From a virus, in the IMG/VR virus record IMGVR_UViG_3300032257_000011: DNA of 64,000 nt; one strand, 5' to 3'. Positions 18,417 through 38,107 of this stretch are shown here, piece after piece. Made by a program: the position numbers and the translations under genes. The notes under the pieces were generated by a model. The model saw nothing but the letters and a program-made list of their open reading frames with translations. It had not been told where the DNA came from and did not search any database. Position 1 is the stretch's first letter. Each line of letters starts with the position of its first letter.

Positions 18417-18638
18417 ATGGGAATGTATGATGAAGTTATTGTCAATTGTCCAGTATGCAGAGAAGAAGTAGCAGTTCAATCAAAAGCAGGACCATGCGAA
18501 CTCATTACCTATAGAGGCAACAATGTACCAGCAAGCATAGCTGAAGATATCAATGGGGAATACCAAGATTGTACAGAATGTAAACAATCATTCCAAGTAG
18601 AAGCTCAAATCATTGTTATACTCACAACCCATACATAA
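18417..18638 (+). CDS. zinc-ribbon small protein
   Basis: CPVC…CTEC. Confidence 0.45.
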   Translation: MGMYDEVIVNCPVCREEVAVQSKAGPCELITYRGNNVPASIAEDINGEYQDCTECKQSFQVEAQIIVILTTHT

Positions 18639-18652
18639 CAGGAAAATATATC

Positions 18653-18835
18653 ATGACTCCAATACAAATCATCATATATATCATCACGCTACTCATAGCA
18701 CTACTTATAGGATATCTCATAGGAGAAGCTACAGCTACAAAAATACTCAATGAAGAAACAGAAAACAATAGAAAAGAATATGTAGAATTTGATTTAGATG
18801 AACCAGAACCAGAAGAGCAGGAAATAATATCATGA
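18653..18835 (+). CDS. small membrane protein
   Basis: ORF track. Confidence 0.35.
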   Translation: MTPIQIIIYIITLLIALLIGYLIGEATATKILNEETENNRKEYVEFDLDEPEPEEQEIIS

Positions 18836-19086
18836 TAACACCTATTATTGCCATAGTAGTAGCCTTCACAATACTGGTATCCATGCTTGTTCTATTAGCA
18901 AATAAAGCAATCAAAGATGATAGAGAAAGAGTAGAATTTGAAATACTCATGGATGAGACATGTCCTCATTGTGGACAAACCCTAACACTGAACCACTCTA
19001 CGAGCGTGGATAAGCAAGTAGCAGATGGACAGCTTACTCTTTCATCGCAAGTAGCGAATGGACAGCTCAATATTGAACCCAAATGA
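18832..19086 (+). CDS. small membrane protein with CPHCG motif
   Basis: ORF track. Confidence 0.4.
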   Translation: MITPIIAIVVAFTILVSMLVLLANKAIKDDRERVEFEILMDETCPHCGQTLTLNHSTSVDKQVADGQLTLSSQVANGQLNIEPK

Positions 19087-19127
19087 ATAAATTCCTTGTT
19101 TTTGACCTAATATGGATATTTCACCCA

Positions 19128-19148
19128 TTATGACCCACTATGACCCAC
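19128..19148 (+). repeat. direct repeat TATGACCCAC x2 in 170-bp AT-rich intergenic region
   Basis: read directly. Confidence 0.5.
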
Positions 19149-19255
19149 AGGAAACTTTAGATACGCTCTGGAAGCCCAGGATAGCGCGTCTTTATGTTAT
19201 AACATCATAATATTCGTCAGGGAAACTTAAATAATATATTTATGAGGTAATAAAA

Positions 19256-19549
19256 ATGCCACAATATAGGATGGCCAATCAGAAACAAGAAGAACTGTTA
19301 TACTCCTTTGGTCTGCCCTCCGTTATTACAACAAATGGGAATGCGAGGGGATACTTTCATAACGAAGGGAGCTTCTGCACCCAATACGGGAACGGTACTT
19401 TCATCTGGTGTCATATGGGATACATTCACAGAAACAATGGACCCGCAATTGAACGAAGTGGTGAAAAGGATCTATGGTATCTTTGGGGAGAGAAGACCTC
19501 AGTAGCTGATTACAGTTGGTCTATCTTCTTGGAACAAACACTATTATGA
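19256..19549 (+). CDS. MORN-like (…NGPAIER…WYLWGEK) repeat protein
   Basis: same repeat type as the 15114 gene. Confidence 0.5.
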   Translation: MPQYRMANQKQEELLYSFGLPSVITTNGNARGYFHNEGSFCTQYGNGTFIWCHMGYIHRNNGPAIERSGEKDLWYLWGEKTSVADYSWSIFLEQTLL

Positions 19550-20118
19550 TACTTCTCATATCCATCTCATGCTTGTCTCTCAGTTTCCTAACACTGATTG
19601 GTACAACTTACCTATCGCTCATCAAATTCCACAAGCTCCAAACCTTGAGGGTTCTGGATAGAAATGATAAATTTCATTTTATTGGGATGAGTATTCTGTT
19701 AAGTTTTTCTATGGGTGGATTCTTAGCTTTACTTCTTATTCACAACAAATCATTGAGGCTTACACTGAATGAGCGGCTTGATGAGGTTCGTAATCGTCCT
19801 ATGATTGTGAAACTTGCTAGGACTTCTTTTGATAGGGAAGAGAAGGTTCCTAGGGGTCAGGGGTATATACCTTGGGCGATGAAGCCTTATGGTGAATTGA
19901 CGATTGAGGACAGATATAGACATGTTGGTACGCCTAATGATTTTCCACCCTTGGGGAATTCTGACACTGAATCGGAGCCTGGCTTTGTAAACTTTCCTGT
20001 AGGATTTTTTAGTTCATCAGCTCCTTCTAAAGCTGTTACACTGAATGACATTAAGGATGTTGACGAAGTATCTACTAGGCTTACTGTTGTTGACAAGTTG
20101 TTTAGGAGATATAGATGA
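19516..20118 (+). CDS. membrane-anchored hypothetical protein
   Basis: ORF track; T-rich codon usage. Confidence 0.5.
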   Translation: MVYLLGTNTIMILLISISCLSLSFLTLIGTTYLSLIKFHKLQTLRVLDRNDKFHFIGMSILLSFSMGGFLALLLIHNKSLRLTLNERLDEVRNRPMIVKLARTSFDREEKVPRGQGYIPWAMKPYGELTIEDRYRHVGTPNDFPPLGNSDTESEPGFVNFPVGFFSSSAPSKAVTLNDIKDVDEVSTRLTVVDKLFRRYR

Positions 20119-20816
20119 AATTACGTGGAATCCATATTAGGGGCAAAAACGCATCCAGTGACATTTCTTTGGACTTCATGGATGACGAGGGGAAATTGGT
20201 GGAACAATGTCTTCTGAGGGGTAATTTGCTATCAGGAAAGACATTGTTATGTCATCTTATATCTTCAGCTTGGTCATCGAGTATATTGAGTAGTCCTAAT
20301 CTGGAGTTGGATGTTGATGCTGAGATGGTTCGTATTGATTTTAGTGTTGGTCATGAGATAAGTAGTGTTCATATCCGTAATGGTCATATAGAGCCTTCTT
20401 CATTGTTAGCGAAGCATAGTGATGTGAGTATAGGTGATAGTCCTTCTGTTCATGGTGGAGTGTTATATTATTCTTCATTGCGCGAAAATTATATGGAGTA
20501 TGCGAATGCTGCTTATATGGGTTCTGGTGGCGTGAATCGTTGTTTGCCTGTGATATATGACTTACAGATGAAAGAAATCAAAGATTCTGTGATTATTATA
20601 GATGATTGGGACTTGGGTTTAGATGCTGTTACTGCGAAGTCCTTTTATACATTTGTGAGTAGTCATGCTCATTCTGGGGGTAATCAGTTGATATTGACAA
20701 GTTCTTCAGCTAAACCGGGGTATATAGCTGATAGGAGTTGTTTTGAGTTATCTGGGGGTTCTGATATTATTACAGAGTGTCTGAAAGTAATGGGTAGCGT
20801 GGCTGTAGGCGAATAA
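20115..20816 (+). CDS. P-loop NTPase (Walker A GNLLSGKT, Walker B VIIIDDWD)
   Basis: motifs read directly. Confidence 0.55.
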   Translation: MKLRGIHIRGKNASSDISLDFMDDEGKLVEQCLLRGNLLSGKTLLCHLISSAWSSSILSSPNLELDVDAEMVRIDFSVGHEISSVHIRNGHIEPSSLLAKHSDVSIGDSPSVHGGVLYYSSLRENYMEYANAAYMGSGGVNRCLPVIYDLQMKEIKDSVIIIDDWDLGLDAVTAKSFYTFVSSHAHSGGNQLILTSSSAKPGYIADRSCFELSGGSDIITECLKVMGSVAVGE

Positions 20817-20883
20817 TTTCTATTTATATAAATTATTGTTGAAAGGGCAATAATCCTTTGAAAAAATCTGGAAATGATTAAAA

Positions 20884-21267
20884 ATGAGTCCGATACTACA
20901 AGAGCATATTGAAGATGGTGAATATTACGTCGATGGCATTCGTCGTTGGTTTGTTGACAATGAGCTTCATAGGGAAGACGGCCCTGCTGTTGTGATGGAC
21001 AATGGTTCTGAGTTTTGGTTCAAGGATGGCAAGCGTCATCGCATTGGAGGTCCTGCTGCAATTGTTCCTTCTGGGATCAATGGGGACAATGAGAGCGGAG
21101 AGGGTTGGTATCTTGATGGCGTGAGTCATAGACTTGATGGTCCTTCTACGACATATGATGATGGGTCTACCCTTTGGTGCGTATATGGTCAGATTGTTGA
21201 TTCTGAGCGTGAGCAGTCTTGGTTGACGTTTCTCTTTGCTGGAGTGCATGATGAGCAACGTAGCTAG
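20884..21267 (+). CDS. MORN-like DGPA-repeat protein
   Basis: HREDGPAVV, HRIGGPAAIV, HRLDGPSTT repeats. Confidence 0.55.
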   Translation: MSPILQEHIEDGEYYVDGIRRWFVDNELHREDGPAVVMDNGSEFWFKDGKRHRIGGPAAIVPSGINGDNESGEGWYLDGVSHRLDGPSTTYDDGSTLWCVYGQIVDSEREQSWLTFLFAGVHDEQRS

Positions 21268-21445
21268 AGATGCAATGACGAGATATTATAAGAAGGCTGG
21301 CTATATTCGCAAGGATGTTGGTAATTCTATTCGAGTGTTTGATGCGATAGATAATAAGCGAAGCGCCATTCTGCATCATGGCAATCATGTTTTGAGGAAC
21401 GTGGACAGGGATTGGTTGATGTTCTTTTATCCGGAAATAATATAA
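21236..21445 (+). CDS. hypothetical small protein
   Basis: ORF track only. Confidence 0.3.
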   Translation: MLECMMSNVARDAMTRYYKKAGYIRKDVGNSIRVFDAIDNKRSAILHHGNHVLRNVDRDWLMFFYPEII

Positions 21446-21464
21446 TGTATGAGATTTCAACTAT

Positions 21465-21728
21465 ATGGAAAACGACATGAAGATTAGATACACTCATTAT
21501 TCTGATACCATTGAGGTATGGGTTGACATGGAAGGCGAGGCTGTCAATTCTTCTGTTCTCAATTATAATGTAACGACATTGAAGCCTGAAGAGAGTTCTG
21601 ACTATTCTTGGTTTTATTTTCTTTTTCCGGAGAAATTAGAATTTGATACAGACGTGTCTCCTCAGCAGCAAGCTGACTACATGAGAGAAATGTTAACACA
21701 TTCTCATACAACGGATGACTTCTCATGA
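21465..21728 (+). CDS. paralog A (D-x-SWFYFLFPEKLEF motif)
   Basis: shares motif with next ORF. Confidence 0.45.
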   Translation: MENDMKIRYTHYSDTIEVWVDMEGEAVNSSVLNYNVTTLKPEESSDYSWFYFLFPEKLEFDTDVSPQQQADYMREMLTHSHTTDDFS

Positions 21729-21955
21729 TGGATTATGAGTACGCAGATGGAACAGTTGAGAAATGGACCGATAACGGTGCCTGGTTATATAAGACAGAAG
21801 ACATGTCTGTTATAGATAGCGATTGGTTTTATTTTCTTTTTCCTGAGAAGCTGAAGTTCAACTACTGGGAAGAGAAGGTAGATTCGCTTGGAGAGACTAT
21901 GTTTAGTTCAGAGCTACAGAAAGATCTCAAGGCCTGGCATGGTATCGAAATTTAA
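21725..21955 (+). CDS. paralog B (DSDWFYFLFPEKLKF motif)
   Basis: ATGA overlap. Confidence 0.45.
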   Translation: MMDYEYADGTVEKWTDNGAWLYKTEDMSVIDSDWFYFLFPEKLKFNYWEEKVDSLGETMFSSELQKDLKAWHGIEI

Positions 21956-21961
21956 AAGGGC

Positions 21962-22110
21962 TTACACTGATTGACATCAATCGTATGTGAATAAGTAACA
22001 TACTGATGACCAGAAAGATCCTTACACTGTTTCGCTAACACTGATTGGGTTACACTGTTTCGCTTACACTGAATGGCATGTGAATAGCTAACACTGAATG
22101 GCTAACACTG
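21962..22110. repeat. array of 7 TTACACTG/TAACACTG repeats with inverted TCACATG elements
   Basis: copies at 21962, 22022, 22036, 22050, 22064, 22089, 22103; CATGTGAAT at 22078 and CGCATGTGATT at 22114. Confidence 0.7.
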
Positions 22111-22122
22111 AACCGCATGTGA

Positions 22123-22836
22123 TTACCTACCTTCGTAAGTTTTCATGACATCCCGAAGCTTTTCTGCGTAATCTTCTCTGGTTTGCTCTGGAACGATCTT
22201 CCAAGGAAGTCCCCAATGAAGGCGTATGAGGTTCTCAAGGAGACGAGCTGCTGAGTTATTGCCATCTTCAAACGGCTTGATGGCAGCGAATCTGAGCGAC
22301 ATCTCTTCAGCCTTCTCAACGAAGAGTTCCGCCGTCTCATTATCAATAACAACTCCTCTGATGATATGGAGATGCTTCTGTTCGAACTCGTGGATGTCAT
22401 TGGTCCACTCAAGGAGTAGGTCCCTTATATGGAATTGGCTTGGAGCTTCAATGGTCCCGAATGGGGATTCCGTTCTTTGGACACTTTGACGGAACTGACC
22501 AAGCTGTGAATGATTGATGAGATTTCCATCAAGTACAAGCGCTCCAAATTCAGCGACTGGCTTCATCATATTCCGGTGAAGTCTTTTGACCCAGGGGATT
22601 TTGGTATCCAGTTCGAAGACGTTATTGACTTTGGGGAAGATATCATCTTCTGCGATTGATGAGATGAGCATAATTGATTTATATTGACCTGCAACATATG
22701 GGTCATGATTTTCAACTTCTGGCGAGTGTATTGTTCTTTCAATGGTTGTTCTATCCATTGGAACCCGGTCGAGTCGAATTGTGTGATAAATGAAAGCTAT
22801 TAACTGGTCGTCTGTTGGTTCTGGAAAGTTTGGCAT
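22123..22836 (-). CDS. Fic-fold protein with non-canonical motif (KPFEDGNNSAARLLENLIRLHWGLP)
   Basis: matches HPFxDGNGRxxRLLxNLhLxxxGxP with H->K and GR->NS; only long minus-strand ORF; ATG at 22836, alternative TTG at 22878. Confidence 0.6.
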   Translation of the reverse strand: MPNFPEPTDDQLIAFIYHTIRLDRVPMDRTTIERTIHSPEVENHDPYVAGQYKSIMLISSIAEDDIFPKVNNVFELDTKIPWVKRLHRNMMKPVAEFGALVLDGNLINHSQLGQFRQSVQRTESPFGTIEAPSQFHIRDLLLEWTNDIHEFEQKHLHIIRGVVIDNETAELFVEKAEEMSLRFAAIKPFEDGNNSAARLLENLIRLHWGLPWKIVPEQTREDYAEKLRDVMKTYEGR

Positions 22837-22852
22837 AGTTTGTTTATCGTCA

Positions 22853-22864
22853 TTTCCGCGGAAA
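22853..22864. promoter_or_regulatory. TTTCCGCGGAAA palindrome 17-28 nt upstream of Fic ATG
   Basis: read directly. Confidence 0.5.
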
Positions 22865-22866
22865 AA

Positions 22867-22949
22867 AGATCGGTGCAAGGGTTGACAACATCAGGTGAAG
22901 ATGGTAAGATCGGTGCATGGAGAGAAAATCCCACAACAAGATCGGTGCA
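22867..22949. repeat. three direct copies of AGATCGGTGCA (22867, 22907, 22939) in divergent intergenic region
   Basis: read directly; same 11-mer recurs 11 or more times elsewhere. Confidence 0.7.
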
Positions 22950-23086
22950 TTGATTCACTGTTTGACATCAAAACCGTGTCAAAAGCTGAAAATGGTGTGA
23001 AAGGGGATGTAGCTGGTGAAGCTATGATAATGGATAATAGAGAGTCGTGAAAGTTTTTGTTCAAGTATATATAGAAGGAATTTGTT

Positions 23087-23842
23087 ATGTCAATCAAACG
23101 AGGTCGTGTCACTGAATCAGATGTCTACTACAACCATGCGAAGGACGCAGCTCTCTCAGGAGTTGAGCGACCGGATTCGATTACAAGGAGAGACGGCAAT
23201 AAACAGAAGGCCCGTCGCCATCATATCCTTGAGAAAGACTTAATCCTGAAGACTGAGGAGATGAAGCTCAAGGAGAGATGGATTGGACCCTGTAATAAGT
23301 GGAAGACATATTGGGCCATCATCGAGTCTCTCTACCAATTAGGGCCAAACCAGCAGCATCTATTTGGAGCCGTCTTTATCAAGATTGAGGAGCTGATGGA
23401 TGACGAAGCTTCCAGAGATAGTTCTGATAGAACTGCTTGGCAGCGATTTGCAGACAAAGATTCACGCAACAATACCTCAGGAAAAGATGCTCTTGGTCGT
23501 ATTTGGGACTCGATCAAAGTCCTTCAGCGTCTAGGCGGAGCGAATCCTTACGGGCTGAAGCTGGCTCAACTGGGAGCATGCATCAACATCTATGGTAAGA
23601 AGGACAAGCCTTATATTGAATTGAGAATTGGCATACCTGCTGGTTCGGACATTACTCCTATCAATGAGATTCGTTCTAGGGACTATCCCCGTTCTATTAC
23701 CTCGGTTCCTTCAGGTTATAAAGCTGAGGGTGGACTGCATGTGATAGACCTGACTGAAATTGGAGATCCATGCTCACCATCTATACAACCATTGACCATT
23801 GCTCAGGCTGCTGAGAAGCTTGAACAGAGTCCGAACTCTTGA
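23087..23842 (+). CDS. hypothetical protein
   Basis: ORF track; GAAGGAA SD; TTGACA-N17-TAAGAT promoter-like at 22883-22911. Confidence 0.55.
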   Translation: MSIKRGRVTESDVYYNHAKDAALSGVERPDSITRRDGNKQKARRHHILEKDLILKTEEMKLKERWIGPCNKWKTYWAIIESLYQLGPNQQHLFGAVFIKIEELMDDEASRDSSDRTAWQRFADKDSRNNTSGKDALGRIWDSIKVLQRLGGANPYGLKLAQLGACINIYGKKDKPYIELRIGIPAGSDITPINEIRSRDYPRSITSVPSGYKAEGGLHVIDLTEIGDPCSPSIQPLTIAQAAEKLEQSPNS

Positions 23843-23921
23843 CAGTTCTTATTCACATGCGGTAAGATATCTCTATCGAAAGTTGAGACGATTTCAACTT
23901 CCACTTATAGAGGTATAACCG

Positions 23922-25355
23922 ATGACTAGCAAAGCAAACAAGACAGGCACTCCAAAGTCCAAGGGTCGGGGGCGAAAGTCTGACCCAATCAAGTTTATTG
24001 CTCCAATCAAGCCAAACGACCACATCATCCGTGATGCTATCGACTTGGGCTTGTCTGAAAGCAACGACTCAAATGCAATCCTTTCCATCCTTCAACGCCA
24101 CCCACAGAATGTAGATACCATTCTCGATGAGGATGAGCGTTTGGAAGCGATTGCTCAACTTATGTCTGAGAATAAGATGGTTGCGGCTCCAACGGATGCC
24201 GACCGAGTTAATCGAATTCTTGACTTCGTGGTTCAATCATCCTCGGAGAAGGGCGAACAAACTTGGCTTGCTCTTTTGAGTCCAGACCGTTCTACTCTTG
24301 TATCTTTTCCAGACTACCAGGAATTGCTTCGCAAGCGTTTGATGGAGCAAATTCGTGGCGTTCGTCGTAAGGTTCGTACTGATAGTCGTAAGGCTGCTAA
24401 GGCTTTTGCTGACTACTCGGATACCAATGGGGATGGGCCTTTGGCTATCTCTTGGCATGAAGCGGCGAATGATATTGAGATTCTTGAGCGTATCCCAACT
24501 GGTCATCAAATCTTGGATGAATTCTTTGGGTACGATGAGATTGAAACTCCTAACGGAGAGAAGATTAGAATCGGCGGTATGATTAACGGTCATACTTACA
24601 TCGTCGGCGCGCCTCATGGCATGGGTAAGACTCGTTGGCTTGTTGACCTGCTTGCTCGTTTGTGCGGCAAGGCTTCAATGGATGAGCATGGTAGAACTGT
24701 CGGCGGTATGACTGGTCTCTACATTCAAGGGGAAGAAACCCCAAGCCGATTTGCTTCAATGTTCGTCGATGGTCTTTGGATAAAGGGCGAGCATGATATC
24801 CATCTTTCGGATAAGGCTGTCTTTATGACTCAGCACGAATCGCTTATCAAGCAACTTCGACCTGATATTGTGGTCATCGACTCCAAGGATATCATGGAAG
24901 ATTGGAAGCATCCATCGGCTGCCAAGCGTAACGCTAAACTGTACAATCGTTGGGCGGCTGAATACGGATTTGTTCTCTTTGTTATCTCTCATGTCAATGC
25001 TGAGGGAAAGATTAAGGGCGGTTCCGATTTGCCTCACATGTTCCGAGCCGAAATCCTTGGCGCTCGTAATGAGCATGATGCCTCTATGTTCTATCTTCGG
25101 ATGGGCAAGAATCGTGGTTCCCAAGGCGGCGGCGTAGTCCACTACAAGCATGGTTCAAAGACTGTCCATATTGTTGATGAAGCGACTGGCGATACCATAA
25201 TCAAGACCGAGATGTGTCCTGATGCTGCCTTGCTAACTGGCATGGTTGATTCGGCTGTAAATCATAATCAGACTACAACGGCTTTGCTCTCTCAAATCAA
25301 TACGGCAACGGAGAGAACAAGCGGAACTAGGGTCGTAGAGAACACGGCGAACTAG
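23922..25355 (+). CDS. DnaB/RepA-like RecA-fold helicase
   Basis: Walker A GAPHGMGKT, Walker B VVIDSKD, RecA-like core. Confidence 0.65.
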   Translation: MTSKANKTGTPKSKGRGRKSDPIKFIAPIKPNDHIIRDAIDLGLSESNDSNAILSILQRHPQNVDTILDEDERLEAIAQLMSENKMVAAPTDADRVNRILDFVVQSSSEKGEQTWLALLSPDRSTLVSFPDYQELLRKRLMEQIRGVRRKVRTDSRKAAKAFADYSDTNGDGPLAISWHEAANDIEILERIPTGHQILDEFFGYDEIETPNGEKIRIGGMINGHTYIVGAPHGMGKTRWLVDLLARLCGKASMDEHGRTVGGMTGLYIQGEETPSRFASMFVDGLWIKGEHDIHLSDKAVFMTQHESLIKQLRPDIVVIDSKDIMEDWKHPSAAKRNAKLYNRWAAEYGFVLFVISHVNAEGKIKGGSDLPHMFRAEILGARNEHDASMFYLRMGKNRGSQGGGVVHYKHGSKTVHIVDEATGDTIIKTEMCPDAALLTGMVDSAVNHNQTTTALLSQINTATERTSGTRVVENTAN

Positions 25356-29581: not shown

Positions 29582-29753
29582 ATGACCATGAACACTCAGT
29601 TCCAAACAGATAGACTATTACTTGCGTAAAGGGAAGGCCCCTACTAACGCTTGCTATGTCTCTGTAGTCAAGACCTCATAACAACTCAATGAATATACTT
29701 GCCGTACCGCTGCTCTAAAGAGAAACGTACATCATGGGCAAGTTTTTCTTATT

Positions 29754-29837
29754 GGCCCTATGGTGAAATTGGTAGACACGCTAGGTTCAAATTCTAGTGG
29801 CTGAAAGGTCGTCCCGGTTCGATTCCGGGTAGGGTTA
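29754..29837 (+). tRNA. tRNA-Leu (anticodon CAA), type II
   Basis: hand-folded cloverleaf; long variable arm; GGTTCGATTCC T-loop; no CCA encoded. Confidence 0.7.
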
Positions 29838-30140
29838 TTCACTTGTAAGAGATTCTATCATGTGATAGTATGACGATACAAATAGAGCTGATGCTCAGAA
29901 GGAATGAAATGAATAGTAAGATGACGAATGTAGCTCGGAAACACAGGATGAGCCGCAAGAAGATGCAGGCGCAGGTTCGAGCAGAGAAAGCAAAATCAAA
30001 GAAGTAGATGAAAAAACCGAGTAAGGAAGAATTGAAAGCAGCTATACAGAGACACGTTGAGAAGTCAGCGGAGGCTGTGGCAAAGATCCCTCTTGAGAAG
30101 AGGACGATTTTGAGTAAGTTCGACTTGGAGAAAAATTGAT

Positions 30141-30326
30141 ATGGTTATAAAAATAGGTAACAAATTTGTGTCTTGGGAGAAATCAGGAAGAGGTATTTAT
30201 ACCGTTTATACTTATTCTTTGCAGAAAGAAAGACCTGAAGAAAGCACAGCGACAGAGATAGCAAGAAGAAGTAGACAAATGAGTTTTATTGGATTTGCAA
30301 GATTCAAAGAAATGGAATTTTGTTAA
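30141..30326 (+). CDS. hypothetical small protein
   Basis: ORF track only. Confidence 0.3.
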   Translation: MVIKIGNKFVSWEKSGRGIYTVYTYSLQKERPEESTATEIARRSRQMSFIGFARFKEMEFC

Positions 30327-30332
30327 ACACAC

Positions 30333-30414
30333 GGCCCCGTGGCGGAATTGGTAGACGCGCAAGATTTAGGTTCTTGTTCCTTACGGAGTGCAGGTTCGAT
30401 GCCTGTCGGGGTTA
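30333..30414 (+). tRNA. tRNA-Leu (anticodon TAG), type II
   Basis: hand-folded; long variable arm. Confidence 0.7.
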
Positions 30415-30418
30415 TTTA

Positions 30419-30502
30419 GCTTATGTGGCGGAATTGGTAGACGCGTATCCTTGAGGTGGATATTCTAGAAATAGAGTGGAGGTTCGATTCCTCTCATGAG
30501 CA
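30419..30502 (+). tRNA. tRNA-Leu (anticodon GAG), type II
   Basis: hand-folded; long variable arm. Confidence 0.65.
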
Positions 30503-30511
30503 TTATAAATC

Positions 30512-30584
30512 CCTCTTGTAGCCCAATGGCAGAGGCGTTTGTCTTAGGAACAAAATGTTGGTGGTTCGACTCCACTCAAGAGGA
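30512..30584 (+). tRNA. tRNA, anticodon TAG, short variable arm (identity uncertain)
   Basis: 73 nt; C1-G72; 3-bp D stem; anticodon loop CTTAGGA; T-loop GGTTCGACTCC. Confidence 0.5.
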
Positions 30585-30588
30585 TTTA

Positions 30589-30664
30589 GGCCCTGTAGCC
30601 CAACTTGGTAGGAGGCGACAGACTTAAAATTTGTACAGTGTGGGTTCGAATCCCTCCAGGGTCA
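30589..30664 (+). tRNA. tRNA, anticodon TAA, short variable arm, enlarged D-arm (identity uncertain)
   Basis: 76 nt; anticodon loop CTTAAAA; T-loop GGGTTCGAATCCC; one T-stem mismatch. Confidence 0.45.
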
Positions 30665-30677
30665 TTAGGAGAACAAG

Positions 30678-31058
30678 ATGAAAAGCATTACCTTTGATGA
30701 AATTGAAGTAATCATAAATGAGCATGCTGAAGAGTTTGCTGAAGAGTCTGTGCTTGGTATAGGTATTTGTCAGCGTGAGAATCTTCTTAGATTTGTGGTT
30801 ACAGTTGAAGACCAAGAGACTTTTGATACTCTTTCCGAAAAATACAAAGACAGAGAAATCAATGGATTTCCTATCTATGTTGAAATCGGAACTATTCTAA
30901 CTATTGATAGAAGCGTTGACATGAGCATGGACATGGACCCGTGGCCTTTCTGGATGCTCCACAATAATGATGCTTGGTGGATGAAGGCACTATTATGTAT
31001 CCCTATCACATGCAGTTGGTTGCTTTGGTCTATAAGAGGCAAAGACGCTTGCCCATAG
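30678..31058 (+). CDS. hypothetical protein
   Basis: GGAGAA SD immediately after tRNAs. Confidence 0.45.
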   Translation: MKSITFDEIEVIINEHAEEFAEESVLGIGICQRENLLRFVVTVEDQETFDTLSEKYKDREINGFPIYVEIGTILTIDRSVDMSMDMDPWPFWMLHNNDAWWMKALLCIPITCSWLLWSIRGKDACP

Positions 31059-31266
31059 GAGAAATAGATGCCGACAGCAGAAACGCTTGAAGAAGCAAAA
31101 ACGTGGTTCCTTGAGAACTCTAGCGGAGTCTTGGTTTGTATGTCAGGAGAGCAGCAGATGATTGTTTCTAGCTATACTGAAGCTGAAGACTTTTTTAGGA
31201 TGGCTGCCATTTGCGGCGAATAGGACTGCTAATCACCGCACAGTTTGCGGCGAATAAAGGAAGCTG

Positions 31267-31998
31267 ATGAGAATTTTTGACGCACGAGGAAAAGATTACT
31301 ATGATGGAGTCATGTACTCCACTTTTCATGGAGATGAAGAGACACTTTTTATCCGCGAAGAAAAAGAAGTCAAAACAAAAACAAGTAATGGATGGGATTG
31401 GAGAGGTTGGTCGTGGGGAGATAGCTTCACAGATTATTGGCCCTTTGGTAATGGCCTCTCTATTGGTTCCTATTGGCGAAACAATTCAGACCTGAAGAGA
31501 GATAGAGATGAAGTCAGCGAATATCTGTACTACATCGGTTTCTGCGGCATGGTTTATCCCGTCATCAAGAGAGTAACCCATAAAGAGAAATTCCATCCAA
31601 GAAGCGCAATGTCAGATGCGTATGTAGAAGACTTGTCAACGACAGAATATCTGTACGAGCCATTGGAGTCTCATTCGCAAAGAACTAAAGACTTGTTCGA
31701 GGGATACAAAAATCCACCACAGATTTACCTTGACAAGTGGGCAGAGATGATGAAAGAGAATCGTTCTCCAATCTTCATCGCTAATTACGAGCAAGGAACA
31801 ATCACGTGGAATCCTCATCTTGAAGAGTATGACTTCCCCAAGGTTGTCAATGCATGGGATGCAGGCAAAGCCGTCTATCAGTTTCTATCAAACCTGGGTC
31901 GCATCGAATTAGAAATTCCGGAAGAAGATGATATTCAGAAAGCTGAAAGACACGGGTTCGATAAGAAGACATCATTCAGAAAAGAACCACAGAAATGA
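31267..31998 (+). CDS. hypothetical protein
   Basis: ORF track. Confidence 0.55.
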   Translation: MRIFDARGKDYYDGVMYSTFHGDEETLFIREEKEVKTKTSNGWDWRGWSWGDSFTDYWPFGNGLSIGSYWRNNSDLKRDRDEVSEYLYYIGFCGMVYPVIKRVTHKEKFHPRSAMSDAYVEDLSTTEYLYEPLESHSQRTKDLFEGYKNPPQIYLDKWAEMMKENRSPIFIANYEQGTITWNPHLEEYDFPKVVNAWDAGKAVYQFLSNLGRIELEIPEEDDIQKAERHGFDKKTSFRKEPQK

Positions 31999-32004
31999 AA
32001 AGAT

Positions 32005-32223
32005 ATGGGCTTCCAGACAATCGACGAAATCAAGAATTATGTACGACGAGTCAACTTCTGTATTGATCATGGAGTACCGATGTGCGAGTTGCCTCCAGGC
32101 ACTCCTGTTGATTGGTCAAGCGAGGATACCCATAACCTTACTGATGACCAACTCACATACATTGCGAGAGAGGCGACAAAGATAAGAATAAGAGAGGCGA
32201 ACGAAAAACATGCAAGAAAATAA
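32005..32223 (+). CDS. hypothetical small protein
   Basis: ORF track. Confidence 0.4.
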   Translation: MGFQTIDEIKNYVRRVNFCIDHGVPMCELPPGTPVDWSSEDTHNLTDDQLTYIAREATKIRIREANEKHARK

Positions 32224-32398
32224 AGAACGTAAAGAATTTCTAGAGTATCTCACTCGCACTCGTAACGAATTTTTAAAAGTTTTGCGAGTGCAGATAGAAA
32301 AAGTTCGTAACCACAAGCAAGAAGATGGACCTGCAATTCTTTTGCCTAATAGCAAACAATGGTATGAAGGTGCAAGATTTTACAGAGATGAATGGTAA
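32210..32398 (+). CDS. hypothetical small protein
   Basis: ORF track. Confidence 0.35.
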   Translation: MQENKERKEFLEYLTRTRNEFLKVLRVQIEKVRNHKQEDGPAILLPNSKQWYEGARFYRDEW

Positions 32399-32406
32399 AA
32401 ACATTT

Positions 32407-32480
32407 GCTCGACTAGCTCAACTGGATAGAGCGTCGGTCTTCTAAACCGAAGGTTCTGGGTTCGAGTCCCAGGTCGAGTG
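32407..32480 (+). tRNA. tRNA-Arg (anticodon TCT)
   Basis: hand-folded; anticodon loop CTTCTAA. Confidence 0.7.
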
Positions 32481-32487
32481 TTGGTAT

Positions 32488-32573
32488 GGGCTTGTGGCGG
32501 AATTGGTAGACGCAACGGACTTAAAATCCGTCGAGGGTAAATCCTCATGAGGGTTCGAGTCCCTCCAGGCCTA
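32488..32573 (+). tRNA. tRNA-Leu (anticodon TAA), type II
   Basis: hand-folded; long variable arm. Confidence 0.65.
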
Positions 32574-32690
32574 TTTGAAAAGAAATCACCTGAGAATCAA
32601 TCAGGTGAACACAAAATCTGATATACTCATATCTGAACAGCCCATCAAAGGGCAAGAAACTCAATTTCATCCCTAACGGAGAAACAAAGA

Positions 32691-33347
32691 ATGTCAGACA
32701 TGAATATTGCCAACAAACCAGGCGCACAGTCAATTACTGATGCACAAGCAAGCGAACTCGATTACGTTATTGCCATTGATACAAGCGGTTCTATGGCTGG
32801 TCGAGACCCACAGCGTACTGACCTCACCCTTTTCAAGCACGCTCAGGAATGGACAACCGGAATGTCACGTTGGGCTGAAACTGTAGATGATGACGGCATT
32901 ACCGTTATTGCCTTTGGTGGAAACTCTATCGCAATGACAGACAACGTTACAGCAGATAGCGTTGAGACCGTATTCAATTCGCAGCCTCCACGAGGAAGCA
33001 CCCCAACTACTGAAGCTGTCCAGAAGATCATTGACATGAAACTTGCTGGAACGTTTACTAAGGATGTTGTTGCCTTCATCATAACTGATGGTAAGCCAAA
33101 CAACTCCGAGGGTGTTGCTCAAGCAATTGCTGCATGGACTAATCACCCAAGCGCAACTGAGCAAGGTATTTCATTCTCATTCATTCAGATTGGTAATGAT
33201 ACAGCCGCTCGTAATTTCCTTACAATGCTTGATGATGACCTCGAATCCAAGTATGGTGCGAAGTTCGACTGTGTAGACACTCGTACTCTTGCTGAAACAG
33301 AAAACATGTCATACGGCCAACTCGTATGGGGCGCACAGAACGACTAA
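32691..33347 (+). CDS. vWA-domain protein (TerY-like)
   Basis: MIDAS motif VIAIDTSGSM plus ITDGKPN; sits immediately upstream of TerD and TerB homologues. Confidence 0.7.
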   Translation: MSDMNIANKPGAQSITDAQASELDYVIAIDTSGSMAGRDPQRTDLTLFKHAQEWTTGMSRWAETVDDDGITVIAFGGNSIAMTDNVTADSVETVFNSQPPRGSTPTTEAVQKIIDMKLAGTFTKDVVAFIITDGKPNNSEGVAQAIAAWTNHPSATEQGISFSFIQIGNDTAARNFLTMLDDDLESKYGAKFDCVDTRTLAETENMSYGQLVWGAQND

Positions 33348-33465
33348 ATCTCCGAGCAGACAGGCACACCGCTTGTCTGTTTTTTCTCATCTATCAATGT
33401 AGATAGATGGTACTTAACCGCAAGCATTGCTTGCAAATTGTCCTCTTAGGACAAAGGAAACTCAA

Positions 33466-34059
33466 ATGTTGACAATTACTCCAAAGGGCGGGACCGTTGG
33501 TCTCACCATCGCAGCCAAGGCAACTCCTGAAGCATCAACCGCTCCAAATCAGTTCAACTTCGGTGCTGGTTGGGATACCACTGGTGGCGAGGCAGACCTT
33601 GACCTTTGCCTCTTGCAGCATCGTGGCCGTGGCGCTGCTGCTACTGATGGCGATCTCATCTACTACGCTAACCTGACCTCTGCTGGCATCACCCACACCG
33701 GCGATAACCAGACTGGCGAAGGCGACGGAGATGATGAGAATGTTCGCATGAACCTTGCTGATCTTCCTGCTGACGTTACTGCTGTTTCAATCGGTATCGT
33801 TGCATACTCAGCTACTGACTTCGGTAGCGTTGACAACATCCACCTTGAAGGTCGTGCTGGCGATGCTGAGAACGGTTCAGGTCTCTTCGGAGCTGATTTC
33901 TCAGAAACTGGCAACAACACATGCCTCGTAGCTGCACGCCTTGAGCGTCAGGATGATGGCGAGTGGACTGTGGTCAATACTTCAGAGTTCTCGAACCCAG
34001 GCAATGGCGGAGCTGCTATCCAGGGCTTCGTAACTGCTGCATCAGCGCTTTACAGCTAA
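33466..34059 (+). CDS. terD: TerD-family stress protein
   Basis: GWD…DLDL…HTGDNQTGEGDGDDE…DLPADV match TerD Ca-binding signature. Confidence 0.8.
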   Translation: MLTITPKGGTVGLTIAAKATPEASTAPNQFNFGAGWDTTGGEADLDLCLLQHRGRGAAATDGDLIYYANLTSAGITHTGDNQTGEGDGDDENVRMNLADLPADVTAVSIGIVAYSATDFGSVDNIHLEGRAGDAENGSGLFGADFSETGNNTCLVAARLERQDDGEWTVVNTSEFSNPGNGGAAIQGFVTAASALYS

Positions 34060-34163
34060 TCCTCTGTTGGGATTTGGTTTACAACAGTTAGAGGGTAGAA
34101 ATATCCTCTGCTGTTTTCGGAAAACAATAACAGTGCAAGTTGCACAGAACTTAGGAGAAGCAA

Positions 34164-34625
34164 ATGGCTTTTACAAAATTTATGAACATCATGAACAACG
34201 TGGCAGGAGACATTACTGCGAGTGCGAAGAAATTCTCTAACTCAGGAACTCGTGACCGAGCCGCTGCTGTAGCTGCTATCGTTGCTTATGTTCCTGACCA
34301 AGACGCTGACAAGGACGAAATCAGCAAGGGAGTTAAGGCTATTCACAAGATGACTGATGGAGCTTTCAAGATTGATGAAATGCTTGCAGCCGTAAACAGT
34401 GCAGTTGAGACACTTGAGTTTGATGTAGACATGGGATACACGGAATTGATGAATACTGTCCGCAAGGCAGGCGCTGACGAACGACGTTTGCTTGTTAGCG
34501 TTGGCATCGCAGTCGGTAAGTCATCTGGCGAACCGGGCGAAGATCCATTCTCTCCTGAAGAAAAAGATTGCGTTCGTCGAATGATTACTGACCTCGGTAT
34601 GAATGCTTCAGATTTTGGTCTGTAA
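34164..34625 (+). CDS. terB: TerB-like protein
   Basis: C-terminus VGIAVGKSSGE…EEKDCVRRMITDLGMNASDFGL parallels TerB. Confidence 0.65.
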   Translation: MAFTKFMNIMNNVAGDITASAKKFSNSGTRDRAAAVAAIVAYVPDQDADKDEISKGVKAIHKMTDGAFKIDEMLAAVNSAVETLEFDVDMGYTELMNTVRKAGADERRLLVSVGIAVGKSSGEPGEDPFSPEEKDCVRRMITDLGMNASDFGL

Positions 34626-34650
34626 AGAATAAGTCAGACCATTTGTTTCC

Positions 34651-34688
34651 ATAGGGCCGGGTGTACCCTTATGCCCGGTCCTATTTTT
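34651..34688 (+). terminator. terminator-like hairpin + T-run
   Basis: ccggg…cccgg stem then tatttttc. Confidence 0.45.
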
Positions 34689-34711
34689 CAATCAGCTCAA
34701 AGGAATAACTC

Positions 34712-35833
34712 ATGCAATGGACTCACGATTTAGCCACAACCATGTCAACGTGGCATTGGTCACTTTCTCTCCTTCTCACGATTTTGATGACGGTCGTAAT
34801 TAGCCGTGTGATTGCTTGGGCCTGCGACCACTTCGAACCTGCTGCTGGACATCTTGGCCGTAATTGGCCAGCCGGAATCCGTGGAGCAACAATTAATGCT
34901 GTTGGTTCTTCGATGCCTGAGTTGTGGACGACTGTGGGTCTTCTCTTCTTTGTGGGCGTAGGCACTACGACTGGAGTGGCTCTCCTTGGGGCAGGTATCA
35001 GCGTTACAGCGGGGTCTGCTGTTTTCAATTCGGTACTCATTCCTGCTGCTGTAATCTTCGCCGTCACAGCTCCTTTTGTTTTGCGAATCCTGACGTTCGG
35101 GCTTGTCTCAAAAATGGCAAAACAGGCTGATTCGTTCGTAATTGACAAAAGAAGCGTGGCTCGTGACCTCGTATTCATGCTTATTGCTGAAGTATCGCTC
35201 ATCTACTTCCTTCACAACGGGGTCTTCCAGCTCTGGATGTGCTTGTCCTTACTTGGTCTGTACGCCTTTTACGTCCTATTCATGTGGCAAGCTGTACGCT
35301 CTCATGAAGGAGAGGAAACGGAAGCTGAAGAGGGTTGGACGAACAAGCGGGCGCTTTGGACACTTTGTTGGACCACGTTGGCTCTCGTTGTCGCTTGTTA
35401 CTGTCTTGGCGAAATTATCGTAATTTCTGCTGTGGCCCTTGGTATTCACCCCATAATTTCTGCTGTCTTCTTTGGAGCTGCTGCATCGAGCGTTCCTGAC
35501 GTAATCCTGAGCGTAAAGGATGCACGAGCTGGAAATTACGAGGATGCGATTGCAAACGCTGTTGGAAGCAATACATTTGACATCTGTGTTGCTCTGGCTG
35601 GCCCAATGGCAATCTACATCCTGATGTATGGAGAGATTGTTCTTCCTGACCATGCGGCTGTGGAGATCCTCAGGATTGGTCTCCTTCTAACGACGGTACT
35701 TGTCGTTGGTCTTCTCCTTCTAACCAAGCAGGTTCGGTCATGGATCGCCTGGGTCCTGATGGCGGCGTACTTGGTCTGGATCTTCTTTGTTCTTGATACT
35801 GAGTTTGGTCTATTGTTCTTCTCAGGCACCTAG
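34712..35833 (+). CDS. CaCA-family cation/Ca2+ exchanger-like membrane protein
   Basis: about 10 TM helices; alpha-repeat-like GSSMPEL and ASSVPDV. Confidence 0.5.
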   Translation: MQWTHDLATTMSTWHWSLSLLLTILMTVVISRVIAWACDHFEPAAGHLGRNWPAGIRGATINAVGSSMPELWTTVGLLFFVGVGTTTGVALLGAGISVTAGSAVFNSVLIPAAVIFAVTAPFVLRILTFGLVSKMAKQADSFVIDKRSVARDLVFMLIAEVSLIYFLHNGVFQLWMCLSLLGLYAFYVLFMWQAVRSHEGEETEAEEGWTNKRALWTLCWTTLALVVACYCLGEIIVISAVALGIHPIISAVFFGAAASSVPDVILSVKDARAGNYEDAIANAVGSNTFDICVALAGPMAIYILMYGEIVLPDHAAVEILRIGLLLTTVLVVGLLLLTKQVRSWIAWVLMAAYLVWIFFVLDTEFGLLFFSGT

Positions 35834-35892
35834 TCCTTTTCACATGCTATAACCCTTCAGGGACAGTTGATAACGCCCTTAGAAAGGAGCTT

Positions 35893-36177
35893 TTGATGAA
35901 TCAGAGTTACTATCCAACCAAATGGCCAGTCATAGGCCGGTACGTCCGATACTGGGTCAACGATCCGCCTGAGTCCTTGGCTCTGTCGCTCATTCTTGCA
36001 ATCCTGGCGATTGGATGGATGATTACTGCGGGGTCTGTTGTTCCTTTTGGTTTACACATCCTGGCAGCTCTTTTTGTTCTGGCTTCCCTCTTCTTCTTGG
36101 TGGGGATTACCTTCCTCATCTTGAATCAACGGGAAGTTGAACGTATTCGAGCTGAATATCGCAAGAAGAATCCCTAA
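35893..36177 (+). CDS. small membrane protein
   Basis: ORF track. Confidence 0.45.
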   Translation: MMNQSYYPTKWPVIGRYVRYWVNDPPESLALSLILAILAIGWMITAGSVVPFGLHILAALFVLASLFFLVGITFLILNQREVERIRAEYRKKNP

Positions 36178-36588
36178 ATGGCCATGAATTCCACTATGTT
36201 GTTGCATTCATACCAAATAGAGAACTTCTTGAACCCTGACAGGTTTGCTGAAGCTAGCGAGCTGTGTCAGCTCTTCTGCGAGCGTCAGGACAAGGCGTTG
36301 ATTGGCGGATGGGACGGAGAGGGTGAGCCTCTCTTCTCTGAAGACGCAATTAGCTTCAATGGTTCTGGCGACGACGGGCACCAAACGTTTCAGATACGTC
36401 TGAATGGAACAGGTCCTCGGTTATGTGATACCAATCACAATGCATACGACGTAGTGGTCCGTGGTTGTCTTCTTATCCTGAAGAGCGTTTTCGAGGAGGA
36501 ACTCACAATTCACATTGACGGAGGTCACGAACCTTCGACAGAATTGGCTCGGGCGCTCGTGGAGAGTTACGTTGGCAGAGCGGTATAG
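36178..36588 (+). CDS. hypothetical protein
   Basis: ORF track. Confidence 0.5.
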   Translation: MAMNSTMLLHSYQIENFLNPDRFAEASELCQLFCERQDKALIGGWDGEGEPLFSEDAISFNGSGDDGHQTFQIRLNGTGPRLCDTNHNAYDVVVRGCLLILKSVFEEELTIHIDGGHEPSTELARALVESYVGRAV

Positions 36589-36614
36589 AGGCAGGCACTC
36601 TAAGAAATTGTCTC

Positions 36615-36629
36615 TTTTCCGCGGAAAAA
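36615..36629. promoter_or_regulatory. TTTTCCGCGGAAAAA palindrome
   Basis: read directly. Confidence 0.45.
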
Positions 36630-36785
36630 TGAGAGAATCTACTTGACTTTGAAGAAAAAGTGTGAAATAATGAAGGAACATCAAACAGATGGTCGAATAG
36701 GTTTATACATGAAAAATGTCAAAGTCCATATTAGCATAGTGATTATACCCTAGCGGGGGTAGTCGTTATCTTTATGGATACGGTC

Positions 36786-36823
36786 AACCTCGCTCCCTGC
36801 TTCGGTAGGAAACGAGGTTTTTT
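36786..36823 (+). terminator. hairpin + T6 before tRNA-Val
   Basis: cctcg…cgagg stem + tttttt. Confidence 0.5.
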
Positions 36824-36826
36824 ATT

Positions 36827-36899
36827 GGGCGATTAACTCAATGGCTAGAGTGCTTGCTTTACACGCAAGAAGTTCCCGGTTCGAGTCCGGGATTGCCTA
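36827..36899 (+). tRNA. tRNA-Val (anticodon TAC)
   Basis: hand-folded; anticodon loop TTTACAC. Confidence 0.7.
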
Positions 36900-36910
36900 C
36901 TTCACATTTC

Positions 36911-36985
36911 CCGATTGTAGCTCAGTTGGTTTAGAGCGTTCGCCTGATAAGCGAGAGGCCGGAAGTTCAAGTCTTCCCAATCGGA
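36911..36985 (+). tRNA. tRNA-Ile (anticodon GAT)
   Basis: hand-folded; perfect 7-bp acceptor stem. Confidence 0.7.
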
Positions 36986-37075
36986 TTTAAAACCTGGAGT
37001 TTAGCTATACTCCCATATCAAAATAGCACTCGGAAGTTTTGACCCGTTTGATAGATCGGGGAGGTCTTCTAGCAC

Positions 37076-37149
37076 ATTCCTGTAGCTCAGTTGGCTAGAG
37101 CGCTTTCCTGACACGAAAGAGGCCAGAGGTTCGAGTCCTCTTAGGAATA
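37076..37149 (+). tRNA. tRNA-Val (anticodon GAC)
   Basis: hand-folded; A1-U72. Confidence 0.6.
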
Positions 37150-37265
37150 TTCACATACCTTTCTTCGGAAAAGTAGAGATAAGCCAAGCGAGTGAAGCAG
37201 AGATGCGGTATACTTGGTTTCGACGATTCTTTGACAAGTAAATAGATAATATACTTCATCTTATT

Positions 37266-37338
37266 GGGGCTTTAGCTCAGCGGTTAGAGCATTCCACTCA
37301 TAATGGACAGGTCCTGAGTTCGAATCTCAGAAGCCCTA
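37266..37338 (+). tRNA. tRNA-Met (anticodon CAT; elongator or Ile2-type)
   Basis: hand-folded; anticodon loop CTCATAA. Confidence 0.6.
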
Positions 37339-37348
37339 CTTTCAAGAT

Positions 37349-37423
37349 GGTGAGCGTAGTTCAATTGGTTAGAGCATCTGGTTGTGATCCAGAATGTTGC
37401 GGGTTCGAGCCCCGTCGCCCACC
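37349..37423 (+). tRNA. tRNA-His (anticodon GTG) with G-1 and C73
   Basis: hand-folded; extra 5' G pairing with discriminator C is the His hallmark. Confidence 0.7.
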
Positions 37424-38102: not shown

Positions 38103-38107
38103 CTTTC

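Follow-up and report, generated by a model that had tools for sequence, protein, structure and literature searches.

What is the role of a dense group of short direct repeats placed between two convergent genes of a large phage, next to genes for replication proteins? The repeats lie in IMG/VR virus record IMGVR_UViG_3300032257_000011, of which a stretch of 64 kb, here called the window, was analysed. They fill the non-coding gap (21956-22122) between a plus-strand open reading frame (ORF; 21725-21955) and the sole sizeable minus-strand gene of the region, a convergently oriented Fic-like ORF (22123-22878). We consider the odds to be somewhat better than even that this array is an iteron- or operator-type set of sites recognised by a conserved DNA-binding protein of the phage, the candidate for which is the predicted winged-helix protein encoded two genes away.

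The array holds seven copies of the 8-mer TTACACTG/TAACACTG (TWACACTG, hereafter the box), all on the plus strand, with starts at 21962, 22022, 22036, 22050, 22064, 22089, and 22103 and start-to-start distances of 60, 14, 14, 14, 25, and 14 nt; boxes 2-5 thus keep an exact 14-nt period. TWACACTG is found 20 times in the window against 2.9 expected (maximum in shuffled sequence 7), always on the plus strand, the 13 single boxes outside of the array included, and Tandem Repeats Finder reports period-14 and period-28 arrays (scores 67-96). The seven-copy array described in the original prediction is therefore far above chance. Two reverse-complement copies of a promoter-like core had been noted between the boxes, and had been seen to stand, relative to the boxes, opposite to the arrangement in the plus-strand cassettes; both observations are correct, and a weaker third copy, TATGTGAAT at 21984-21992, can be added. 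It sits in a small inverted repeat (GTATGT at 21983-21988, ACATAC at 21998-22003) that is identical in the relative L035. The core at 22076-22085 shares the last G of box 5, and AATCACATGC, which overlaps the stop codon of the Fic-like gene, mirrors the plus-strand cassettes, where a TGA stop overlaps the next core. Small ORFs within the array reach 29 amino acids (aa) at most and are without support.

The array is retained at the same place over a large evolutionary distance. Relatives were analysed as 20-kb loci (L numbers below), orthology by BLASTP in 8 lineages, synteny and box density in 13, and box counts at the junction in nine. The four core genes are orthologous in 8/8 lineages, with identities down to 23-38% in the most distant, and the order ATPase (plus strand, ~215-256 aa), Fic-like gene (minus), 251-aa winged-helix protein (plus), and helicase (plus) is common to 13/13. 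As the minus orientation of the Fic-like gene is kept in all 13 lineages, with protein identities down to 23-38% in the 8 compared, it must be ancient. Presence and orientation of the Fic cassette in relatives had been named as a check in the original prediction: the minus orientation goes together with junction boxes in 13/13 lineages, and no relative carries the arrangement without repeats, since every relative examined has boxes. Plus-strand boxes at this convergent junction number 7, 5, 4, 5, 3, 11, 4, 2, and 3 in the nine lineages, against 0.1-0.3 expected, and the only minus-strand match at the junction in these nine is in L049. The consensus of 51 pooled boxes is T-W-R-CAC-Y-GA-W-T-S-G, in which CAC.G is invariant; one of the changes within it is that of CACTGA to CACCGA in L045.

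Comparison over shorter distances indicates that the array is under purifying selection. Five close strains, variable elsewhere, have an identical intergenic array, and the sole difference in the interval is a TAA to TAG change in the stop codon of the Fic-like gene (22123). Relative to L035, whose helicase is 81% identical, positions 21940-22059 are 90-95% identical compared to ~78% for the flanking genes. The two arrays differ by one clean 39-nt indel, consisting of one inverted core and two boxes (boxes 6-7 and the core preceding them, missing in L035), so that the unit was either tandemly duplicated in the lineage of the window or lost from L035.

The relatives were found through proteins. 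Exact-protein look-ups identified five near-identical metagenomic strains, one of their contigs, ena:ERZ27251083:k141_51752, being 117.6 kb long, and searches with the helicase and the 251-aa protein led to progressively more distant lineages, including contigs of 370-494 kb. Winged-helix orthologues on such contigs (L043/L044, L171, L173, L174, and L177), some of them from Tara Oceans samples, extend the family from ~117 to ~490 kb; L043 and L173 were checked for the complete order of the four genes. With its ~117 kb the phage of the window thus belongs to a family that reaches "megaphage" size. This family of large phages has not been described previously, and megablast of 21000-24000 against GenBank phages gave no match; the helicase gave weak protein matches at 24-28% identity. 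No relative was found in IMG/VR scanned with the helicase or for ATTCACATGCNGTAAA (29 single chance matches), and an exact tandem-box scan of IMG/VR returned one unrelated coding repeat. The same scan of the JGI metagenomes returned 120 loci, with the core genes only in L058 (same record as L047). GTDB genomes scanned with a winged-helix profile held no relative and hence gave no clue to the host, and a literature search for the motifs yielded unrelated matches only, mostly vertebrate and clinical papers.

The array is one part of a larger arrangement. In each of the 13 lineages 2-9 boxes are found within ~800 nt upstream of the ATPase gene and 1-13 between the end of the ATPase gene and the end of the minus-strand gene. 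In the span that begins 800 nt before the ATPase gene and ends where the winged-helix gene starts, the density of plus-strand boxes is 2.6-5.8/kb, compared to 0.07-1.4/kb elsewhere in the locus. The upstream cluster of L175 starts directly after a sigma-70-like promoter (TTCACA-18-TATAAT, 11/12), at about +1 to +5, and by eye the same is seen in L172 and L176. In L036 the ATPase gene is preceded by a non-coding gap of 870 nt that contains nine boxes. The same gap (3560-3640, 3900-4000) also holds three 31-nt repeats (agctcacactcttcgagcggagagagaagct...) and three 33-nt repeats made of a box and a small hairpin (TTACACTGttccACTACttcatAGTAGaaaacg). Several boxes that stand singly in the window are found at gene junctions or 1-7 nt before start codons (41320, 42925, 46820, 50564, 56509, and 57791). 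Three boxes follow a stop codon by 4-7 nt (21962, 46820, and 50564), that at 57791 adjoins a terminator hairpin, and those at 41320 and 42925 belong to 5' leaders, at 43 nt past a promoter-like core. Exact 13-mers identical to box 5 directly precede three start codons.

The inverted elements belong to the most abundant motif of the window, ATTCACATGCnGTAAa. The exact 9-mer ATTCACATG is present 36 times on the plus strand and once on the minus strand, and this sole minus copy lies inside the array; at up to one mismatch there are 11 minus-strand matches, 3/11 of them inside a 141-nt stretch of the array itself. Allowing A or T at the first base, the window has 44 plus-strand core sites (e.g., 56489 and 60024), none of them in 1-23850; the first plus-strand ATTCACATGC core, at 23851, lies ahead of the helicase gene. 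Each plus-strand core is found ~50 nt upstream of a gene, nearly all of the small genes there having one, and the preceding TGA stop often overlaps it (TGATTCACATG). Position 25 of the motif is a purine in 41/44 sites and the shared leader rTCAyTGAAT..AAGGAG follows; from this purine and the conserved Shine-Dalgarno sequence downstream, transcription would start near +25. The motif appears to represent promoters of a class specific to the phage, which define gene cassettes, the word promoter being applied to it on account of its position. It was not taken as a canonical sigma-70 promoter, as the spacing to any -10-like element does not fit. The likeness of the cores ttATTCACA and, in L039, tttCCACA to a DnaA box (TTWTNCACA) was judged to be probably coincidental; the conserved ATGC extension is foreign to DnaA boxes. 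No minus-strand ORF of at least 30 aa was found downstream of the inverted cores.

Across lineages the promoter-like core changes (ATTCACATGC; CCACATAsGATT; gatCACCGAAT; GGACTAAACTTT) while the box stays conserved, and the inverted copies change with it. The L039 clade, with a helicase ~52% identical, uses yCCACATAsGATT as its plus-strand gene-proximal motif instead of ATTCACATGC, and its junction has five minus-strand CCACATA copies, two of which match the plus-strand sites over 11-12 nt. L036 has three minus-strand TCACATG cores, L035 one and a degenerate second (ATTCACATA), and L045 one copy of its own gatCACCGAAT. L048 and L049, which are among the most distant lineages, have boxes, and no inverted core was found in them on inspection. 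The boxes therefore look like an old core feature and the backward cores like an addition in the wider clade of the window (winged-helix identity at least ~43%) that was kept in step with the promoter-like consensus. As the box is conserved while the core changes, the comparison points to a conserved phage protein, rather than the host RNA polymerase, as the reader of the box. A further minus-strand core, at 23738-23746 inside the 3' part of the winged-helix gene, has counterparts in L035 (7285), L036 (6982), and L039 (8237); its sequence follows the core of the lineage, being TCACATGC in the window clade and CCACATAC in L039, and an antisense transcript directed at the Fic-like gene could start from it.

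The boxes may be read as DNA or as RNA. On both strands the array folds no better than its shuffled versions (z = -1.1 and -0.9), no Rfam 15 covariance model matched either strand of 18500-24000 at E<=1, and the idea of a structured RNA was dropped on these grounds. A palindromic hairpin resembling a terminator separates the ATPase stop codon from the junction boxes in L039, L043, and L175 (in L043 it follows the stop of an extra 46-aa gene), and because of it plus-strand RNA probably does not reach the junction boxes in these lineages. The lack of RNA structure signal, the intervening hairpins, and the stability of the box while the cores vary together favour recognition of the boxes as double-stranded DNA by a conserved phage protein. 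A ToxI-like repeat RNA of a type III toxin-antitoxin system, with ~36-nt repeats that fold and lie upstream of the toxin gene on the same strand, was also rejected: the unit here is 14 nt, the array is downstream of the Fic-like gene with its boxes on the opposite strand, and a structure signal is missing.

We infer that the array makes up the downstream part of a bipartite cluster of protein-binding sites that brackets the early ATPase operon and borders the replication module made up of the winged-helix protein and the helicase. Cooperative filling of sites at a minimum spacing of 12-14 bp would create a nucleoprotein block at the convergent junction, and this block may contact the upstream cluster by pairing or looping, may shield both the minus-strand Fic-like gene and the replication genes from rightward transcription of the early operon, and may also serve to titrate its binding protein. 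The leftward gene-less cores, added in the wider clade, would transcribe across the boxes, which fits a role in activating or priming an origin by transcription, or in making a short antisense RNA. If the array is indeed such a set of binding sites, its most probable use, at just under an even chance, would be that of a regulatory boundary or titration element only; that it is the origin itself or an auxiliary origin element is a tentative possibility, and some other DNA-level role is unlikely.

Several observations weigh against a set of protein-binding sites. First, all boxes, including the 13 single ones, are strictly on the plus strand, which would also be expected of a transcription-coupled or RNA-level signal. 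Second, several single boxes lie 1-7 nt before start codons or just past stops. Third, the local core of L045, gatCACCGAAT, is nearly the same as the box, which hints at a promoter-type element. Fourth, a spacing of 14 bp is not a helical repeat.

The original prediction considered the repeats as iterons of a replication origin. This holds in so far as an iteron-like array lies beside replication genes, as judged from its anatomy, its conservation, and the winged-helix and helicase context; for the origin itself the evidence is divided and, from the sequence features at hand, we regard such a role as possible. In favour are the tandem array of sites, the turnover of its units by duplication or loss, the adjacent winged-helix and helicase genes, and the gene-less backward cores. 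An iteron-type origin is expected to have at least three tandem direct repeats of one recognition sequence, and the array has seven, with a unit of 13-14 bp that is shorter than the classical 17-22 bp. Against it, the cumulative GC-skew of the 64-kb window, which had been proposed as a check, has its minimum, together with a sign flip of the AT-skew, at ~18.6-19.5 kb and not at 22.0 kb, i.e., ~2.8 kb upstream of the array, and around the array the skew is positive or near zero with a dip only across the inverted gene. This is a weak test as nearly all genes are on one strand and the 64 kb come from a genome of at least ~117 kb. The junction has an AT content of 0.60 compared to a window mean of 0.57, and no consistently placed AT-rich 40-mer was found beside the array across 9 lineages. 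The inverted cores of the window consist of the 10-nt core only, their downstream halves being at background (-17, -5, and -15 bits, the second value being the -4.9 of the core at 22076-22085, against a mean of +12.6 for the 44 plus-strand sites). Finally, the same box is also found singly at gene junctions, and the array is only half of the cluster that brackets the ATPase operon.

A second candidate region is the conserved non-coding stretch 19087-19255, in which 2.6 copies of ACCCACTATG, repeated every 10 nt, precede AT-rich sequence. The stretch shares 87% identity with L035, its core is kept in L036 (4195-4233), and it coincides with the GC-skew minimum, the AT-skew flip, and a jump in G+C from ~0.36 to ~0.46. 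This stretch is a candidate for an early-promoter region, an origin, or a boundary between genome segments. If the array is an auxiliary element, it would resemble P1 incA or P4 crr, with initiation perhaps near the non-coding region at 19.1-19.3 kb. It is tempting to go further and imagine a replication-control module of a kind not described before, present in large phages of ~117 to ~490 kb and composed of two box clusters, gene-less backward promoters, and a bracketed ATPase gene. In it a winged-helix initiator would fill head-to-tail 13-bp iterons to either side of the ATPase operon, leftward transcription through the downstream iterons would either prime or license initiation or produce a multivalent antisense RNA against the leader array, and the Fic-fold gene would be part of the switch; we think this rather improbable.

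Of the explanations that do without such binding sites, a transcription-coupled one-way signal fares best, although we still consider it unlikely. Read one way on the non-template strand or on the nascent RNA, the boxes would be a factor-dependent terminator, a pause site, an antiterminator-loading site, or a phage-polymerase promoter, stacked in tandem where the early operon ends, and rightward transcription would there be halted or started anew ahead of the head-on Fic-like gene. This would account for the strand bias, which is complete for TWACACTG in the window (20/20) and amounts to ~137 plus-strand against 21 minus-strand box matches in the conserved span, summed over 13 lineages, and it agrees with the single boxes at gene junctions, past stops, near the hairpin at 57791, and in leaders, with the L175 upstream cluster at about +1 to +5 of its sigma-70-like promoter, and with the equivalence of box and promoter-like core in L045. 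However, the junction boxes of L039, L043, and L175 are downstream of the terminator-like hairpin and would seldom be transcribed, use as promoters gives leaders of merely 1-10 nt, and sites 12-14 nt apart would be mutually exclusive promoters for a polymerase. In addition, no domain of an RNA polymerase or a sigma factor was found in the 101 ORFs of the window, outside of which about half of the genome lies. The extended box aaCCCTTACACTGAATGGGaa is similar to promoters of the T7 group (T3: AACCCTCACTAAAGGGAGA); a T7-like promoter was not adopted, as the window yielded no polymerase gene.

An RNA device is improbable. It would have the inverted cores drive a minus-strand RNA with up to seven CAGTGTWA copies that pairs with UUACACUGAAUGG leaders (41320, 42925, 46820, and 56509) or with the upstream leader array, or it would have the plus-strand copy act as a sponge for an RNA-binding translational repressor. 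The inverted cores are gene-less and co-vary with the core of the lineage, exact box-5 13-mers directly precede three start codons, and in L039 and L043 the hairpin would be able to terminate minus-strand RNA 60-250 nt downstream of the inverted cores, all of which agrees with such a device. On the other hand the array has neither an RNA structure signal nor an Rfam family, L048 and L049 have boxes and no inverted cores, and the inverted cores of the window are without the downstream half of the promoter-like motif. Furthermore, in most lineages no boxes were seen outside the conserved span, and the conserved function must therefore be independent of distal targets.

We give equally little credence to other uses of the DNA, such as a packaging site of the pac or cos type, a site that serves the SMC-head-like ATPase as a centromere or for loading, or an injection-stop signal as in T5 that sets the DNA entering first apart from the remainder. 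P1 pac and TubR/tubC typically have arrays of seven short repeats, the boxes bracket the gene of the SMC/Rad50-head-like ATPase in every lineage, and with a compositional break and a repeat-bearing non-coding region ~2.8 kb upstream the segment 19.1-22 kb could be a leading segment. Yet neither a terminase nor a partition gene was detected in the window, the contig ends of relatives do not fall at this region, and we know of no ABC-type ATPase that is sequence-specific. Least probable by far is the other suggestion of the original prediction, that the Fic gene was inverted by repeated illegitimate recombination between cassette junctions and that the array is the neutral scar of these events: the Fic-like stop does overlap an inverted core as the plus-strand cassette stops overlap the next core, and one 39-nt unit was recently duplicated or lost, but gene order, minus orientation, and plus-strand boxes are the same in 13 lineages with protein identities down to 23-38% (8 compared), which also excludes a recent shared recombinant segment, the array is more conserved (90-95%) than its coding flanks (~78%), the inverted cores co-vary with the lineage-specific cores, and a simple inversion would have flipped the boxes as well, which remain on the plus strand.

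The features discussed are collected in Table 1.

Table 1. Boxes, inverted cores, and genes in and around the array (window coordinates).
Feature	Position	Strand	Remarks
Four dispersed boxes (19589, 19760, 19962, 20036)	19589-20048	+	1-2 mismatches to TTRCACTGAATGG; upstream half of cluster
ATPase gene, 233 aa, minimal ABC-type, SMC/Rad50-head-like	20115-20816	+	Boxes on both sides in 13/13 lineages
Box 1, TTACACTGATTGA	21962-21974	+	7 nt past stop codon of upstream plus-strand gene
Degenerate inverted core, ATTCACATA (plus strand TATGTGAAT)	21984-21992	-	Core score 12.7 bits, downstream part background
Boxes 2-5, TTACACTGTTTCG, TAACACTGATTGG, TTACACTGTTTCG, TTACACTGAATGG	22022-22076	+	
Inverted core, ATTCACATGC (plus strand CATGTGAAT 22077-22085, plus G22076)	22076-22085	-	Core score 19.6 bits
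Boxes 6-7, TAACACTGAATGG, TAACACTGAACCG	22089-22115	+	
Inverted core, AATCACATGC (plus strand CATGTGATT 22116-22124)	22115-22124	-	Overlaps TAA stop of Fic-like gene
Fic-fold gene	22123-22878, called ATG 22836 (237 aa)	-	Marginal Pfam match
AGATCGGTGC, three copies (22867, 22907, 22939)	22867-22948	+	Fic-like/winged-helix divergent region
Gene of conserved winged-helix-like domain protein, 251 aa	23087-23842	+	Candidate box binder
RecA-fold helicase gene (AAA_25, DnaB/RadA-like)	23922-25355	+	

Some of the neighbouring genes had been named in the original prediction and their names need qualification. The label Fic is retained at the level of the fold, by a marginal PF02661 match (E=1.1e-5); the catalytic motif reads KPFEDGNNSAAR with Lys replacing His. 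It thus departs from the Fic/Doc motif HxFx(D/E)GNGRxxR, as does RPFEDGNSATS in L039, and only the distant L049 keeps HPFDVGNGG. The DnaB-like helicase is better described as an AAA_25 protein with a RecA fold of the RadA-DnaB type. The gene of the winged-helix protein is 960 nt from the array and next to the helicase gene, and the protein, which belongs to a family of 35 members, was matched neither by sequence in PDB nor in BFVD. The ~440-496-aa protein encoded after the helicase has no match in Pfam, PHROG, NCBIfam, or PADLOC and no credible one in PDB.

Two small genes directly upstream of the array (21465-21728 and 21725-21955) are paralogues that share WFYFLFPEKL, and are absent where the ATPase gene directly adjoins the array (L036, L039, and L045). 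The divergent region between the Fic-like and winged-helix genes contains a sigma-70-like TTGACA-18-TATACT (11/12; 23093-23064, minus strand) directed towards the Fic-like gene and a second match, TTGACA-17-TAAGAT with an upstream TG (22882-22910, plus strand), directed towards the winged-helix gene. The motif (a/t)AGATCGGTGC(a/t), of which three copies lie in this divergent region, is also found on the plus strand only at 27637, 47498, 48353, 50637, 52065, 54085, 57234, 58702, 59990, 61350, 62819, 63560, and 63899, usually ~10-15 nt past a CCCC-loop-GGGG hairpin and 6-35 nt before a ATTCACATGC core. A similar motif array is present in the divergent region of the inspected relatives (AAGATGGGTG in L039, L043, L045, and L047). 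The reverse complement of AGATCGGTGC, TWGCACCGAT, matches the box core in the window. It is treated here as a separate motif and not as an inverted box because AAGATGGGTG (L039, L045, and L047) breaks the G that is invariant in 51/51 boxes.

Elsewhere the window has 13 tRNA genes in three clusters (29753-39338), seven for tRNA-Leu (anticodons caa, tag x2, gag, and taa x2) and the others for Arg, Val x2, Ile, Met x2, and His. Genes for VWA, TerD, TerB, and a membrane protein of the Na/Ca-exchanger type follow each other at 32691-35833; the TerD/TerB/VWA genes, an unusual cargo for a phage, are conserved in L030, L031, L036, and L037.

Taken as binding sites, the boxes can be compared to several known systems. 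The P1 and F replicons are organised as incC-repA-incA and incB-repE-incC, and in both the downstream cluster is a control locus and not the start site. The phage arrangement is similar in that two clusters of short repeats in the same direction bracket one gene beside replication functions, copy number changes by duplication of units, and the upstream cluster overlaps a promoter (in L175); by analogy the downstream cluster is predicted to act by titration or handcuffing. It differs in that sites are 13-14 bp at a spacing of 12-14 bp instead of 19-22 bp, that the bracketed gene encodes an SMC-head-like ABC ATPase and not a winged-helix initiator, and that neither DnaA boxes nor an AT-rich region were identified. 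In phage P4, ori and crr contain octamer type I iterons bound by the alpha primase-helicase, and there too the downstream cluster is a control locus. An 8-mer core, irregular spacing, two separate clusters, and mixed orientation of elements near a helicase gene are shared with P4, but whereas the P4 helicase-primase binds the iterons itself, no DNA-binding extension can be recognised in the helicase here, and what is inverted are promoter-like cores and not iterons.

The primary origin of T7 consists of the tandem promoters phi1.1A/B and an AT-rich region, and T4 oriF and oriG of a middle promoter and an unwinding element. Gene-less promoter-type elements beside replication genes, written in the consensus of the phage itself as seen from their co-variation, are a common trait, but no AT-rich unwinding element was found here, the inverted cores of the window are core-only, and they point against all other transcription. 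Operator or roadblock arrays and the use made of DnaA boxes in oriC, in datA, and singly at promoters offer another parallel, since one sequence is both clustered and present singly at 5' ends, and the cluster lies just downstream of an early promoter in L175 (by eye also in L172 and L176). Unlike these systems the boxes have no dyad symmetry and are strictly one-way, and the regulator is a candidate only. The promoter-early stem-loop (PeSL) cassettes of T4-type phages, finally, are the known model for shuffling at cassette junctions. The small-gene region of the window is likewise built of core, leader, and gene units, and the Fic-like gene carries such a junction inverted; PeSL junctions, however, vary between close relatives, unlike the present junction, which is fixed together with its boxes throughout a deep family.

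No other non-coding signal found in the family is as deeply conserved as the box cluster, which is more stable than the promoter-like cores and lies where the early operon borders on the replication genes. Whichever reading holds, the idea of a recombination scar can be dropped. If the array is an origin or a control locus, the 13-bp site and its candidate winged-helix binder would provide a handle for studies of replication in these phages and an anchor for comparison of their genomes; if it is a transcription boundary, it would be an example of insulation by a protein array around a conserved head-on gene.

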